Source: Alphaproteobacteria bacterium | Lineage (GTDB): Bacteria; Pseudomonadota; Alphaproteobacteria; UBA8366; CAVOAK01 | NCBI GenBank assembly: GCA_965217615.1 | Contig: CBDCIT010000016.1 | Span: 229,272-293,271 of the forward strand | DNA length: 64,000 nucleotides | Reading direction: 5' to 3' | In this document: positions 3,008 to 52,578 of the stretch, in pieces | Layout of the letters: every line of letters begins with the position of its first letter | Position numbering within the stretch: the first letter of the stretch is position 1 | Position numbers and translations under genes: made by a program | Notes under the pieces: generated by a model | The model's input: only the letters and a program-made list of their open reading frames with translations | Database searches by the model: none | Told to the model about the DNA's origin: nothing

Positions 3008-3097
3008 GGAGGGGTGGCCGAGTGGTTTAAGGCGCACGCCTGGAAAGCGTGTGGGGGTTAGCGCTCCTCGCGGGTTCGAATCCCGCTCCCTCCGCCA
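3008..3097 (+). tRNA. tRNA-Ser (anticodon GGA), long variable arm, encoded CCA
   Basis: Acceptor GGAGGGG/TCCCTCC, D-arm GCCGAGTGGTTTAAGGC, anticodon loop CT-GGA-AA, long variable arm, T-arm GCGGGTTCGAATCCCGC, discriminator G + CCA. Confidence 0.9.
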
Positions 3098-34297: not shown

Positions 34298-34374
34298 CGG
34301 AGTGTAGCTCAGCCTGGTAGAGCACTGTCTTCGGGAGGCAGGGGCCGGTGGTTCGAATCCACTCACTCCGACCA
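34298..34374 (+). tRNA. tRNA-Pro (anticodon CGG), encoded CCA
   Basis: Acceptor CGGAGTG/CACTCCG, D-arm GCTCAGCCTGGTAGAGC, anticodon stem-loop CTGTC-TTCGGGA-GGCAG, T-arm GGTGGTTCGAATCCACT, A + CCA. Confidence 0.9.
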
Positions 34375-41619: not shown

Positions 41620-41775
41620 GACACGTTCTCGGGGCGGGGTGAAAGTCCCCACCGGCGGTAAGAGCGACGGTCGCTCAAGCCCGCGAGCGCTCTTCGGGTG
41701 CATGCCTGAAGAGGACAGCAGATTCGGTGTGATTCCGAAGCCGACGGTGATAGTCCGGACGGGAGAGAACGAGAG
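41620..41775 (+). promoter_or_regulatory. FMN riboswitch (RFN element) upstream of ribH
   Basis: CGTTCTCGGGGCGGGGTGAAAGTCCCCACCGGCGGTAA…AGCCCGCGAGCG…CAGCAGATTCGGTGTGATTCCGAAGCCGACGGTGATAGTCCGGACGGGAGAGAACG matches the conserved RFN core. Confidence 0.9.
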
Positions 41776-48391: not shown

Positions 48392-50155
48392 TTACCGATT
48401 GAGGGTTCGCTTCCAATCTCTTCGCAGGGGCCGAAGCCAGATGTCCTTCCTGGGCTTGTCGTAGAGCTTGTCCCGGTCGTAGCGTCCGCGTCCCTGGGTG
48501 GTCCCGACATGGATCCAGCCGGAGGCTCTGTAGACGGCTCCGGTGTAGCGGGGCGTCTCGACGAAAGTCTCGATGAGCACGGGCGTTGTGTTGTAGCGCT
48601 CGGTCCAGTCCTCGGGCAGGCGCCGGCGGATGATGGCGAGGATGTGCGAGCCCAGGTTGGGGATATTGATCCAGGGCAGGGTGCAGCGAGACTAGCTGCT
48701 GTACTTGCGGGTGAGAGTCCCGTCGGCGCAATTCTCAGTTTAGCGCCGTAGTGATATCCGGCAGGCATGCGGGGCGACCCGGTGGTCTGAAAGCCCGGAA
48801 GTAAAAGCCCCGGAGGGCCGGAGGGTCGTAGTGCCTCTCAGGTCTGGTCAGTTCGGTGGGGCGAGCGAACAGTAGGGCCGTAACGAAAGTGAACGGATTA
48901 AGCGTCGAAAATCATGTCCTGCATGAAGCTGATTTGCGGGGTAAACGGAGCTGCCAAGGGTTTCCTGCCTATCCGATGGCCAGTGCCGGTGCGGAAGAAC
49001 TGAGGCGCACGCATCGGGGCTCCCGGCGTATTGAAGGCGGCAATACTGGACAGTACAGCAGTGAAAGTCCGGAAGGTGTGGAGGTCAGACAGGATGATCC
49101 TTGGATGTCAAAGACCGTGTCTATAACTGGCTGTGCCGGGAAATGAGACGGAGATCTCCAGACTGGCGGATGAGGTCGTCAAGCGTTGATGGGCGGGACA
49201 ACATAACCCGGCTGGAGCGAGGACCTCAGGGCTCAGGTGGCAGTGCTGCTACCGTATGGTCCGCACACAGAGGCGGACGGTCTTCAAGGCGGTCGGCACG
49301 GTCTAAGGACGGAGCAAACGAGGGCTGTGGTCAGGAGAATGGCTGGGTCGACCTTAACCCTGACGCGTCCGCGGAAGGCTCCACTCCGAACTGTGAGGTG
49401 CCTGATGCTTGAAGCCGGACCGGGGAAAACCCGATGTCCGGAATTTTAGGGGGGGCGGCTGGAAACGTGGCCTATGGTGGAACTGTGAACCCACCCCGCA
49501 ACCGAAAGGGCGGGGCTGGAAACCCTCCACCTACCGGTGCGCGCGCCAGTGCCCTACCCGACATCAGGAACCGCGGGTTATCGACCATGAGGGGCAGGTT
49601 CTTCTCGCGTAGTTGCGGCGTCCACCCGATGAAGGTGTCGCGCGGTGCGAGCTTCCAGGCGGCGGTTGAGAAGCCGAGCATGGCGACGGGCCAGCCGTCG
49701 CGGTCGTGGACGGCGTAGCGCATCTGGGCGCCGACCAGGGTCCTGTAGCCGAGATAGTGGTAGCGGGCGATGAACTCGTTCCACAGCTTGCCCTCCCGGG
49801 TGCCGCGCACGACGGGCCGCAGGGTGAGCGGACGGACCTCGTCGAGGGTTGTCGGCGTCGGGAACAGCGGCGGTTCGGTGTCCGGTCCGAAGACGATGGG
49901 CTTGGGCCGGTTCTGCCGTCCCTGCTTCGGCGGCAGAACGATGAGGCCGTCGCGGTGCATATCGAGCATGGTGACCCTGGCCATCATGTCCTTGAGGCCG
50001 CCGTCGGGCTTGAACCAGCCGATGCGCCGGCAGAACGCCTTCGACAGGCGATGGCGGTTCAGCGCCGGAGGGCCGGCGATCAGGGCGCGCAGCAGCGCCA
50101 TCTCTTCGGCGGTGAAGTCGCGGCCGTAATAGCGGCACTCGACGGCGCCGGTCAT
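48392..50155 (-). pseudogene. DUF4338-domain gene, interrupted by an 882-nt insertion (exon-like parts 50155..49563 and 48680..48392)
   Basis: N-part: MTGAVECRYYGRDFTAEEM…NEFIARYHYLGYRTLVGAQMRYAV…WKLAPRDTFIGWTPQLREKNLPLMVDNPRFL. C-part: LPWINIPNLGSHILAIIRRRLPEDWTERYNTTPVLIETFVETPRYTGAVYRASGWIHVGTTQGRGRYD…. The parts sum to 882 nt (293 codons) in one frame. Confidence 0.85.
48681..49562 (+). mobile_element. ORF-less structured insertion, putative group II intron-like retroelement (antisense to DUF4338)
   Basis: No TSD. Starts GTGCAG and ends CCCTACCCGAC. GNRA-type loops occur only on the + strand. A D5-like hairpin lies at 49413..49441. A G7 tract (49449..49455) can pair with CCCUACCC (49552..49559), leaving A49556 bulged 7 nt from the 3' end. 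CCTGCC (48964..48969) complements the 6 nt (GGCAGG) preceding the insertion. See findings for caveats. Confidence 0.5.
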
Positions 50156-52578
50156 CCCGGCGCCGTCAGGGCGAGCCTGTGTTCCTCGTTCATCGACCAT
50201 GGCAGCCAAGGCGACAGGTCGTCCGGCGGTCGACGGCCATTCTTCGCGCATTCTTCCAGCCACGCTTCAAGCCAGCGCAGGACATCGATGCCGTTTAACG
50301 CGAGGGTGCCCACCACCGAGTACATCATGGCCGTGAACCGGGCGCCGGTCTCGCTGTCGGAGCCGAACGACAGGCGTCTTCCGATCGCTGGCCCTCTGAG
50401 CATCCTTTCGGCGAGATTGTTGTCCATCGGCACCAGCGGGCGGTCGACGAAGACGCTCAGCCCCTCGCGATGGTTGATGAGCGAGCGCAGGGCCTTGCCC
50501 TCGCGCGCCTCGTCGGGCAGGCCGGCGAGCTCCCGTTCGGCCTGCGCGAACAGGCCGTCGAGCGTCTCCTCCAGCGCGCCCTGTGCCGTGTCGAACGCCG
50601 ACGTCTGGCGCTCAAGCTCGGCGCCGTAATGCTCCAGCCGCGCCTCGTTCAGGCGGTAGATCGACGCGATCCGCTCGATCCATCCCCGGCACCATTCCGT
50701 CAGGCTGACCTGGCCGGCCGCGCACTCGATAAAATCGCGCCGTTGATGAGACCAACAGAACGCAAGGGTCACCAGCCCCCCGCGAAGGCGAGCGAGCCGC
50801 TTGTAGGCGCTATAGCGGTCGCAGACGATGACCGTGTGGAGGAGGGCCGCCGCGAACAGCTTCTCCGCCGCTTCGGCGCTGCGCGAAGGGTCGATATAGA
50901 AGTAGACGGCATCGCTGCTGACCGAGGTCCACAGCCAGGCGCGGCTCGACCGGTCTTCCCCGCGAAGCTCTTGCACGCGCCAGCTGGTTTCGTCCGCATG
51001 GCGCAGCGCCGCCTTGTCCTGGTGCGCGAGGATCGCCCCGGCGACTGGCTCGAACAGTGGCACGAAGCGGAGCATGCTGTCGGCGAGCGTCCCGGGAGAG
51101 ATCGGCAGCCCCCGGTCGGACAGCCACGCGGCGACCCGCTTGAGCGGGCGGTAGCAGGCATAGCGTTCGAACAGGACGCAGGCCCACACGCTGATTCCGT
51201 AGGGCGTGTTGCGGAACAACCGCGGCACCGGGGGCGCCGACACTTCGATCGGCGACGACGCGCAGCCGCAGGCCCGGCGCCAGCGCGGACGGCGGATCAC
51301 ACGCTTGTGGGCCTTGACGTCGATCTCGACGAGCGGGGAGATATCGGCGCCGATCGCCGCATAGGGCTTGCCGCAACAGGAGCACACACGCGCCTCCTTC
51401 GGCGGGTTGATCTCCTCCTCGCGCTCCTCGAGCCCGGGCCGTCGGGTACGGCCATGGCCTGGGGCGCCGCGCTGCTGGCCGCGCGGGCGTCCGGAGCGCG
51501 GCGTCTCCTGCTTCTCGCTCTTTCGGCCGAACAGCGCCTTCGACAGCACCGCCCCGGTCGCGCGAAGCCTGGCAAGCTGCGCTTCCAGCGTCTGGATCCG
51601 ATTCCACGACGCCTTCGCGCCCTTGCGCAGCCGGGCGTTCTCCCTGGACAGCGATTTGATCGTGGCCTTCTGGCACCGAGATCTCCGCAACGCCCTGCGC
51701 AGTTCGGCATCCGCAATGGACAGCGTCTTCGACAGCGTCTTCCTGACCGCTCGAAGCCCGGCAAGCTCGGACTCAAGCGCCTTTCTGATTGCACGAAGTT
51801 TGGCAGGCTGAACCTCCAGCGACGCTTGCCGCCTCTCCAACTTCCGCACGGTCCTGCGCAGCCGCGCCTTCAATTTGTCTTTTTGGGCCTCGGACACGTT
51901 CAGAGCAACGCGCAGCCGGTAGCCCTCGCCGGACAAGGATTTCACCGCGTCCTTCTGGTCGCGCAGTCGCCTCAGTTCCGCAACGAGACGAACGATCTCG
52001 CGGTTCTGCGATCCGATCGTCTGCTTGTGGGTTTCCGCGCCCTGCAAATCCTTGCGCAACTCACGGACCTCGTACTCCAGCAACCCGGCCTTCTCCGCCC
52101 GGGCCTGCGCCACCTTCAGAGCCTTGCGCAGCTGGTTTACCTCCGTGAGCGACACAACCGGGGGCTGCCTGGCGGCCTCGATGCGGGATTCCGAAGGCCG
52201 CTGCTCAAACCGCGTCACTTCCGCCTTCGATGATTGCGCGGCCTTCACCGCGCGACGCAGTTCCTTCACCTCGACGCGGGACGCCTCCAGCTTGCCCCGA
52301 CAGCTGTCGAGCTGCCACTTGAAAGAACCCGCCCGGGAACGAGCATCCACATCTGACCGGCGCAGCTCTTCACAGCGTGCTTCGGCCGCGTCCGCCCGCG
52401 CCCGTTCCCGCTCCGCACGGGCGTGCTGCCGCTCGTACAGCGAACGCCAGTCGCGCGGCTGCTGCTCCAGCACGGACGCAGGGAACGACCAACCTGCATC
52501 GTTACCATCGGCCTGCGTCAGCGCTACGCCAATATCTTCGTCGAGAACCGCCATGCGCTCGACGATAGCCCATGGCAA
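50152..52578 (-). CDS. IS66-family transposase with unusually long N-terminal coiled-coil region (808 aa)
   Basis: C-terminal ~470 aa have the canonical IS66 TnpC layout (CSCCGKPY zinc-ribbon region, …RHADETSWRV…, …CWSHQRRDF…, …PMDNNLAERMLR…). The N-terminal ~340 aa are Arg/Leu/Ala/Lys-rich heptad-like repeats. Confidence 0.9.
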   Translation of the reverse strand: MPWAIVERMAVLDEDIGVALTQADGNDAGWSFPASVLEQQPRDWRSLYERQHARAERERARADAAEARCEELRRSDVDARSRAGSFKWQLDSCRGKLEASRVEVKELRRAVKAAQSSKAEVTRFEQRPSESRIEAARQPPVVSLTEVNQLRKALKVAQARAEKAGLLEYEVRELRKDLQGAETHKQTIGSQNREIVRLVAELRRLRDQKDAVKSLSGEGYRLRVALNVSEAQKDKLKARLRRTVRKLERRQASLEVQPAKLRAIRKALESELAGLRAVRKTLSKTLSIADAELRRALRRSRCQKATIKSLSRENARLRKGAKASWNRIQTLEAQLARLRATGAVLSKALFGRKSEKQETPRSGRPRGQQRGAPGHGRTRRPGLEEREEEINPPKEARVCSCCGKPYAAIGADISPLVEIDVKAHKRVIRRPRWRRACGCASSPIEVSAPPVPRLFRNTPYGISVWACVLFERYACYRPLKRVAAWLSDRGLPISPGTLADSMLRFVPLFEPVAGAILAHQDKAALRHADETSWRVQELRGEDRSSRAWLWTSVSSDAVYFYIDPSRSAEAAEKLFAAALLHTVIVCDRYSAYKRLARLRGGLVTLAFCWSHQRRDFIECAAGQVSLTEWCRGWIERIASIYRLNEARLEHYGAELERQTSAFDTAQGALEETLDGLFAQAERELAGLPDEAREGKALRSLINHREGLSVFVDRPLVPMDNNLAERMLRGPAIGRRLSFGSDSETGARFTAMMYSVVGTLALNGIDVLRWLEAWLEECAKNGRRPPDDLSPWLPWSMNEEHRLALTAPG

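Follow-up and report, generated by a model that had tools for sequence, protein, structure and literature searches.

In the 64,000-nt stretch of alphaproteobacterial DNA analysed here (contig CBDCIT010000016.1 of assembly GCA_965217615.1; below, the window), positions 48392..52578 of the minus strand are occupied by the two genes of an IS66-family insertion sequence (IS), namely a transposase gene and, after it, a DruA/DUF4338 gene that is split by 882 nt of additional DNA (48681..49562, plus strand). A first-pass annotation had read this insertion as a group II intron devoid of an open reading frame (ORF). Here we argue that the element is, with high probability, a mobile group II intron ribozyme without an intron-encoded protein (IEP). 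Sequence comparison demonstrates its identity as a group II ribozyme, its domain structure, the pairing of its exon-binding site 1 (EBS1) with the 5' exon's intron-binding site 1 (IBS1), and its multiple precise insertions. The four assignments made in the first-pass annotation, i.e. those of domain V (D5), domain VI (D6), the branch-point adenosine and EBS1, all hold, and nothing calls for the alternative that it had raised, an undescribed class of mobile element. The coordinates are collected in Table 1.

Table 1. Features assigned to the intron, its exons and its host genes, with the basis of each assignment (window coordinates)
Feature	Position	Strand	Basis
Whole ORF-less group II intron, 882 nt	48681..49562	+	uninterrupted host copies; same ends at six sites
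Domain I (D1)	48681..49071	+	RF02003 match 48705-48888; consensus fold of relatives
Domain II (D2)	49070..49169	+	covarying helices in family alignment
Domain III (D3)	49172..49227	+	covarying helices in family alignment
Domain IV (D4), ~180 nt, no ORF	49229..49410	+	covarying closing pair; no remnant of a reverse transcriptase
Domain V (D5), 34 nt	49412..49445	+	12/12 pairs 100% paired in 14 sequences, two compensatory
Domain VI (D6), 111 nt	49449..49559	+	basal helix 49449-49456 with 49551-49559
IBS1 GGGCAGG, 5' exon end	48674..48680	+	complementary to EBS1 loop; antisense strand of DruA
EBS1, terminal loop of Id3 hairpin	48962..48970	+	core CCUGCC 48964-48969; six loop versions match exons
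Candidate EBS3 (U)	49031	+	alignment column 364 versus exon +1
First 3'-exon base A, IBS3 candidate	49563	+	complementarity to column 364
DruA/DUF4338 gene, interrupted	48392..50141	-	Pfam PF14236 on both halves; halves flank intron
IS66-family transposase gene, 808 aa	50152..52578	-	PF03050 DDE_Tnp_IS66, E = 4e-54; upstream of DruA

Insertion into the DruA gene

The edges of the element are given by uninterrupted copies of the host gene and by the identical ends found at six sites. In three copies of the host DNA without the element (two on L001 and one on L002, both contigs of the European Nucleotide Archive sample ERZ25069191; flank identity 84-100%), position 48680 is joined directly to position 49563. 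Hence, the insertion measures exactly 882 nt and involved neither a target-site duplication nor the loss of a single host base, in agreement with the precise insertion into DUF4338 that had been claimed earlier. Excising 48681..49562 restores a single 293-aa DruA/DUF4338 frame, in which ...MVDNPRFLI continues as LPWINIPNLGSH..., and the motif DNPRFLI/LPWINIPN (the slash marks the junction) is uninterrupted in all 10 intact DruA homologues aligned. The restored protein has more than 5,000 protein matches at E <= 1e-30, the closest of which (P0001) is 98-99% identical.

The RNA-like strand of the intron is the plus strand, that is, antisense to the DruA gene, as had been pointed out in the first-pass annotation. 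Accordingly, the gene is inactivated, and splicing of the host mRNA would provide no repair. From the viewpoint of genome annotation, this is simply one further mobile intron disrupting one IS copy, and its insertion is a plain knockout of an IS accessory gene. The accessory status of DruA can be judged from L001 (393 kb), which contains a dense cluster of IS66-family transposase genes, every one of them paired with a DruA/DUF4338 gene; therefore, DruA behaves as an accessory gene of that IS66 subgroup. One of the IS66 genes of L001 is itself interrupted by an IS110-family element. For the IS66 transposase of the window, an exact-protein lookup gave no match. A plasmid collection contained no match to the element (distant blastn) and none to the rejoined host gene; searched with the host protein, it yielded two distant matches only.

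Domain structure and exon recognition

An Rfam scan of the whole window returned one intron match, to RF02003 (group-II-D1D4-4), which covers 48705..48888 of the plus strand with 64.2 bits (gathering score, 49; E = 9e-12) and begins 24 nt inside the insertion; the same family matches, above its gathering score, all 17 of the relatives tested (see below). The element starts with GTGCAG and ends with ...CCCTACCCGAC, the terminal AC conforming to the consensus AY; both ends had been named correctly in the first-pass annotation and are kept in relatives. The domains follow each other in the standard order from D1 to D6, which rules out a circularly permuted group II intron with D5-D6 placed before D1-D4 (PMC8637638). 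The earlier statement that the element contains no convincing ORF and encodes no reverse transcriptase (RT) is borne out by three empty searches: the six-frame translation of the element found zero relatives among 5.8 billion proteins (a search that would also reveal related introns wrongly annotated as ORFs), no ORF with a YxDD motif is present in the element, and tblastn detected no similarity to a group II IEP.

Consensus folds and covariation were obtained from 13-14 relatives, and the domain coordinates were mapped onto the window copy. Since the helices are seen by covariation and not by energy, the structure rests on covariation. The description of the insertion as highly structured is thus justified by covariation within the family and fails by energy alone, the z-score of the minimum free energy (MFE) of the whole element being -1.5 on the plus strand and 0.1 on the minus strand. 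In D1, which is closed by helices pairing 48687-48704 with 49053-49071, compensatory changes are found in 45 of the 82 predicted pairs (RNAalifold, 13 relatives); for D2-D4, the corresponding figures are 40 and 76. The closing helix of D4 is formed by GGGC (49229-49232) and GCUU (49407-49410), with the closing pair being GC in nine sequences, CG in three and AU in one. An MFE helix in which the AG of the D5 triad would pair with a distal strand (49282-49288 with 49408-49414, i.e. element positions 602-608 with 728-734), and which would resemble the U2/U6 helix Ib, was rejected because the D4 closing helix of the family is GGGN/NCUU and the MFE helix is unconserved. Two smaller structural suggestions of the first-pass annotation fared less well. 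GAAA is indeed abundant on the plus strand (nine occurrences versus one on the minus strand), but these are mostly conserved internal-loop motifs and not hairpin tetraloops. The UAUGG/CUAAG pair taken for an 11-nt tetraloop receptor lies in D4, is unconserved in the family, and has G in place of A49256 in the five further copies (see below).

The hairpin 49413..49441, singled out earlier as D5-like, proved to be the best D5-shaped hairpin of the element in a geometric search and is conserved with compensatory changes. It shows an AGC triad (49413-49415) in the canonical register, a bulge made of A49434 and U49435, and a GAAAA loop (49425-49429); this loop and the AA opposite the triad (49442-49443) are invariant across the family. 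The helix proposed between the G tract and CCC-U-[A]-CCC, with A49556 bulged, has gained covariation support as well: the D6 basal helix comprises eight pairs, which are 98% paired, three of them with compensatory changes, and A49556, the seventh base from the 3' end of the intron, is a conserved candidate for the branch point. The 3' end itself (...CYACCCRAC) is conserved in the family. The unusual size of D6, which could be taken for degeneration, is instead common to the family and, it seems, to the RF02003 group at large; D6 is 111 nt long in the window intron and about 66 nt in most clades, with its inner sequence conserved. When the D5 helices and the base of D6 are considered together, 99.3% of the cells are paired, versus 22-43% when the 3' partners are slid by 1-3 columns; five pairs show double changes, and 0 of 500 shuffles reached the observed values. 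The check by covariation among homologous copies, which had been proposed along with the original reading, thus supports both the D5-like and the D6-like helices.

As to the choice of target, the element has a single segment that is complementary to GGGCAGG, CCUGCC(U) at 48964..48970, and it lies in the loop of a hairpin with a covarying stem (48958-48961/48971-48974), which agrees with the earlier EBS1/IBS1 proposal (CCTGCC at 48964..48969 versus GGCAGG). Moreover, six different EBS1 loops occur in the family, and each is the complement of the 6-7 nt with which its own 5' exon ends: CCUGCCU with the exon end GGGCAGG, CCCUCCU with GGGAGGG, CAGAUCU with GGAUCUG, CUACUCC with GGAGUAG, CAGGAG with CUCCUG, and GGUCAUU with AAUGACC. 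This covariation of EBS1 with the exon is direct evidence for RNA-guided target choice. For the 3' exon, alignment column 364 is Watson-Crick complementary to exon position +1 in 11 of 13 relatives (U-A, A-U or G-C), with one wobble and one mismatch, so that position 49031 of the window is a plausible EBS3, an assignment that is tentative in view of the small sample and few independent lineages; of the six near-identical copies described below, five have A and one has G as exon +1. As regards an EBS2 of the class IIB type, the six sites share no bases upstream of GGGCRGG and hence give no hint of such a pairing, for which no systematic search was made.

Two further complementarities touch on the exon-binding region. 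The EBS1 hairpin (48957-48969, AGGGUUUCCUGCC) is complementary in 12 of 13 positions to 49514-49526 (GGCUGGAAACCCU), a segment that belongs to a clade-specific insertion in D6; this could reflect masking of EBS1 or a tertiary contact, and it could also be due to chance (by a rough estimate, about 0.2 such matches are expected). The sequence CCUGAUG in D4 (49401-49407) is complementary to 49562-49568, i.e. to the last intron base followed by AUCAGG of the 3' exon. The copy on L030 has the identical 3' exon AUCAGG, and since its minus strand codes for ...LILP..., this copy may sit in a diverged DruA-like paralogue.

Copies and relatives

Further copies were sought with a degenerate D5 pattern in one genome per GTDB species (185,579 species genomes). 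Of the 34 hits, 29 are coincidences in coding sequences, and five are true copies, all in one alphaproteobacterial metagenome-assembled genome (MAG), CBDCMV01. These five are about 99% identical to the window copy and occupy five unrelated sites. All six copies have identical ends, GTGCAG...CCCGAC, and differ by no more than five substitutions and by the length of the G tract, which indicates that the transposition was recent. The four full-length copies are preceded by GGGCAGG and the two short ones by GGGCGGG. How the five MAG copies are oriented with respect to host genes came out ambiguous on inspection of the ORFs in this high-GC DNA.

The two short copies (L004:5946-6732 and L036:3687-4473) have a 93-nt deletion in common (element positions 230-322), which removes the whole Id2-Id3 arm including EBS1, and both have a D6 tract of five Gs. 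The homology between the two loci is limited to the intron, 7 nt upstream of it and 1 nt downstream. A single complementary segment is left to them, CCCGUC, which is part of a conserved hairpin (element positions 39-44). It is possible that the short form can still be mobilised, or else that the deletion spread by gene conversion between copies. Another derivative with an internal deletion is the first copy on the metagenome contig L193, which lacks approximately element positions 263-451, from the EBS1 arm into D2.

More distant relatives were collected by scanning metagenomes for two Rfam-conserved D1 motifs at the spacing seen in the window intron. The scan gave 58 loci, about 50 of which align with the element from its first base (17-593 nhmmer bits). 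The full-length relatives measure 779-885 nt, and their identity to the window copy ranges from 83% (L177, L202) through 56-58% (most clades) to 47% (L199). In every member where D5 could be located, it lies 689-739 nt from the 5' end, and none of these has either room for an RT gene or tblastn similarity to one. The window intron belongs to a large, old, diversified and uniformly ORF-less lineage of soil bacteria with a variant D5, GUGCA at the 5' end and an enlarged D6. In viral contigs, the pattern GGGTGAGAGTCCCG alone yielded mostly chance matches and two class IIC introns, the pattern GCGAA..RGGCCGTAACG gave 18 chance hits without an Rfam intron match, and three further patterns found nothing useful.

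Nesting with other group II introns is frequent in the family, whose members occur both inside such introns and as their hosts. In L186, L196 and L217, an intron of the RF02003 type interrupts the sequence a few nucleotides past the GUACGG of D5 (GUACGGAA, then GCGUGUCC..., the junction being approximate); the inner intron, with 107-116 RF02003 bits on its D1, replaces the D6 region downstream of D5, so that these loci are twintrons. The family member at L195:38-2225 is interrupted in the first hairpin of D1 by an RF02003-type intron that carries a 461-aa ORF with YADD, starts with GUGCG, and has, by eye, a canonical D5 and a large D6. Conversely, the clade of L181, L183, L184, L212, L213, L218 and L229 is found 60 nt inside another group II intron (5' GUGCGCCGGGCUAAACC...) of the RF02005/D1D4-6 type. 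In two of these, L181 and L183, unrelated DNA takes over behind the combination of this 60-nt outer 5' piece and the family intron; joint movement, or joint rearrangement, of the 5' fragment and the intron inside it may have occurred. Twintrons that include ORF-less introns homing into group II introns were described by Dai and Zimmerly (2003), according to the passage citing them in PMC3552965. The relatives nested in group II introns or hosting them resemble such cases, whereas the window copy differs in that it sits in an accessory gene of an IS66-family element and not in an intron.

In one more clade (L185, L188, L200, L214, L215, L220, L231, L232), the ...CCUACCCGAC end is followed by a second D6-like hairpin of canonical size (UGCGGGGGG-stem-loop-CCCUACCGCGAC), with compensatory changes in its stem and a bulged A of its own seven nucleotides from its end. 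This hairpin, which follows ...ACCCGAC in the sister clade, could provide an alternative 3' splice site or represent a 3' extension, as in B.c.I4-type introns that are extended beyond D6 (PMC2691827). The window intron differs from the latter: it has no extension, and the host gene defines its 3' boundary.

Mobility without an encoded protein

How could an intron without a protein of its own reach these sites? Precise ends, absence of target duplication, guide-matched sites, and a conserved catalytic core and branch site together bear the signature of reverse splicing and subsequent cDNA synthesis; with no RT in the intron, the RT must come from elsewhere. We infer that the intron is transcribed and branches, and that its mobility most likely depends on an RT supplied in trans. 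The transcript of the plus strand would fold into the six-domain group II structure, and the intron RNA would excise, probably as a lariat formed via the bulged A49556. The excised RNA would then reverse-splice into DNA after GGGC(A/G)GG, read by the EBS1 loop CCUGCC[U], with the single EBS3 base probably reading the first base of the 3' exon. Finally, the RT/maturase of another group II intron in the same cell would copy the inserted RNA into DNA. The use of IEPs in trans by ORF-less bacterial introns is established (PMC4424553, PMC2882425), and, on 12 or more short metagenome contigs, a family member has the RT gene of another group II intron no more than a few kb away.

A number of observations weigh against this reading. 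The Rfam model of D5/D6, RF00029, gave no match at E <= 10 on a slice of 1.25 kb or on one of 181 nt, and at its gathering score it matched 0 of 17 family members, though other introns on the same contigs are matched. The Rfam check that had been suggested is therefore split, with D1 matched by RF02003 and D5/D6 unmatched by RF00029, even though covariation supports the D5/D6 helices. The 5' end is GUGCA in 13 of 13 aligned relatives, with A at position 5, instead of the consensus GUGYG. In D5, G49414 faces the invariant A49442 and A49443 and not the usual wobble U; the mismatches at the base of D5 listed in the first-pass annotation are thereby confirmed for G49414, which is unpaired, and removed for the rest, since A49413 pairs with U49444 and, below it, A49412-U49445 covaries (C-G or A-U). 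No RT is present in the intron, in the 64-kb window or at the five 8-kb MAG loci, so that the helper is hypothetical here, and the D5-pattern scan of the 185,579 GTDB species genomes did not yield any ORF-containing parent that has this D5. A sigma-70-like promoter was sought in vain upstream of the element on the plus strand, so that expression of the window copy is hypothetical. The two short copies are without the EBS1 arm and yet sit at two unrelated GGGCGGG sites, which the above model fails to explain. Lastly, the evidence throughout is sequence comparison.

Comparison with RT-encoding introns of the RF02003 type, such as the one nested in L195 and the rhizobial plasmid introns with ltrA (the plasmid matches of the RF02003 group are annotated only as ltrA), helps to tell traits of the wider group from those of the lineage. 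The D1 signature and the AGC triad are common to them and to the window lineage, and the nested intron of L195 also has a large D6 with, by eye, a GGAAAC motif; its IEP is 55-58% identical to the rhizobial ltrA products and lacks an obvious endonuclease domain. These introns carry the IEP in D4, begin with GUGCG and contain G.U in a canonical D5, whereas the window lineage has no IEP, GUGCA, a G facing AA, and a GAAAA loop. Traits of the lineage itself are GUGCA, the G opposite AA and the complete lack of an ORF. Within the RF02003 group, L189 is also ORF-less, but it retains an IEP remnant and matches RF00029, unlike the window lineage. Among characterised systems, similar in behaviour are the ORF-less introns of the Thermosynechococcus elongatus type (PMC2882425; PMC4424553), which, like the window intron, are multicopy, precisely inserted and dependent on a protein from elsewhere. 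Known trans-helped introns are, however, recent deletion derivatives beside a closely related RT-coding parent, while for the window lineage the D5 scan found no parent, and the lineage has diversified to 47% identity.

The uniform absence of an ORF across clades that differ down to 47% identity, apparently an ancient state, together with the lack of any RT remnant, is also what one would expect of a stand-alone ribozyme whose main activity is protein-free, guided hydrolysis of DNA or RNA and not retromobility. Such molecules exist: the HYERs of Liu et al. (2024) are, as two reviews describe them, ORF-less group IIC hydrolytic endonucleolytic ribozymes with a 6-nt target recognition site (PMC12990946, PMC11754743). 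They resemble the window lineage as a persistent ORF-less group II lineage with a short guide of 6-7 nt; they differ in being of class IIC and, as far as these accounts go, characterised for hydrolytic cleavage, whereas the window lineage is not IIC and displays a branch-point A and insertion footprints. Class IIC introns carry a CGC triad; the window element has AGC. The idea of a IIC intron, which had arisen early from the 5' motif, was rejected because a true IIC intron matches different Rfam families: the typical IIC intron L110 matches RF02001, RF01998 and RF00029, and the window element matches only RF02003. The sites point in the same direction: IIC introns insert directly behind a stem-loop of the terminator-like or attC kind and have an IBS1 of 3-4 nt, whereas IBS1 measures 6-7 nt here and, as judged by eye, the six sites have no stem-loop in common within their upstream 40 nt. 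Since the copies are inserted exactly at guide-matched sites, which speaks for reverse splicing and cDNA synthesis and not for cleavage alone, and since conservation extends to the bulged branch-point A with its helix, we regard a purely hydrolytic ribozyme as improbable; hydrolytic activity could coexist with mobility.

Still less probable, in our opinion, is a dead relic, that is, an intron left without its former RT gene, catalytically inactive and immobile, which decays where it stands. The missing ORF, the non-canonical D5 invisible to RF00029, the antisense orientation, in which selection for splicing is unexpected, and the existence of deletion derivatives (L004, L036, L193) would all fit decay. 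A decaying intron would hardly be present, however, as six copies at six sites with at most five substitutions and a variable G tract. Furthermore, clades with differences at about 45% of their positions all have GUGCA, a G opposite AA and the GAAAA loop without variation, while the helices keep their pairing by compensatory changes and EBS1 tracks its target in six versions. Odd features that stay invariant while helices covary indicate purifying selection on a working RNA. As for a transposase-moved derivative of a DNA transposon (a PATE of the IS200/IS605 type or a MITE), suggested by a small, non-coding, multicopy insertion without target duplication, it is refuted by the covariation of EBS1 with IBS1 and by the Rfam match to D1, and hence practically excluded, the more so as the ends show neither terminal inverted repeats nor subterminal hairpins, conservation of the flanks is limited to 7 nt on a single side, which covary with a complementary internal loop, and the interior is a group II fold supported by covariation.

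Returning to the mobile ORF-less intron, its wider interest lies in its relatives. ORF-less group II introns, twintrons and insertion into mobile elements are already known, and the D1 of this intron is recognised by Rfam; a diversified, mobile and uniformly ORF-less lineage with this variant of D5 appears to be undescribed within the literature checked. Bacterial ORF-less introns are reviewed as rare, recent derivatives found beside a closely related RT-encoding parent (PMC4424553), and large censuses find introns via the RT gene or the RF00029 model of D5/D6 (PMC8919778). Being both ORF-less and invisible to RF00029, the lineage would be missed by censuses based on the RT or on D5 (PMC4424553, PMC3245105, PMC8919778), and the element is a worked example of this blind spot, as Rfam sees its D1 and not its D5/D6. 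We would only tentatively go further and envisage a long-lived lineage, spread in soil bacteria without an RT gene of its own, with a remodelled D5 and GUGCA, that has escaped the censuses. If this were true, ORF-less bacterial introns would not be rare and short-lived derivatives, and their persistence as parasites of the proteins of unrelated introns, or their movement with little help from proteins, would be conceivable. The AA opposite the G of the triad offers a natural variant of the active-site helix of group II introns and the spliceosome that can be tested biochemically, and, with its 7-nt guide and a size of about 0.8 kb, the lineage joins the HYERs as a candidate for a compact programmable ribozyme.

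Elsewhere in the window, Rfam families mark an FMN riboswitch (RF00050, 114.5 bits) at 41621-41774 and two tRNA genes (RF00005) at 3008-3094 and 34298-34371, all on the plus strand.

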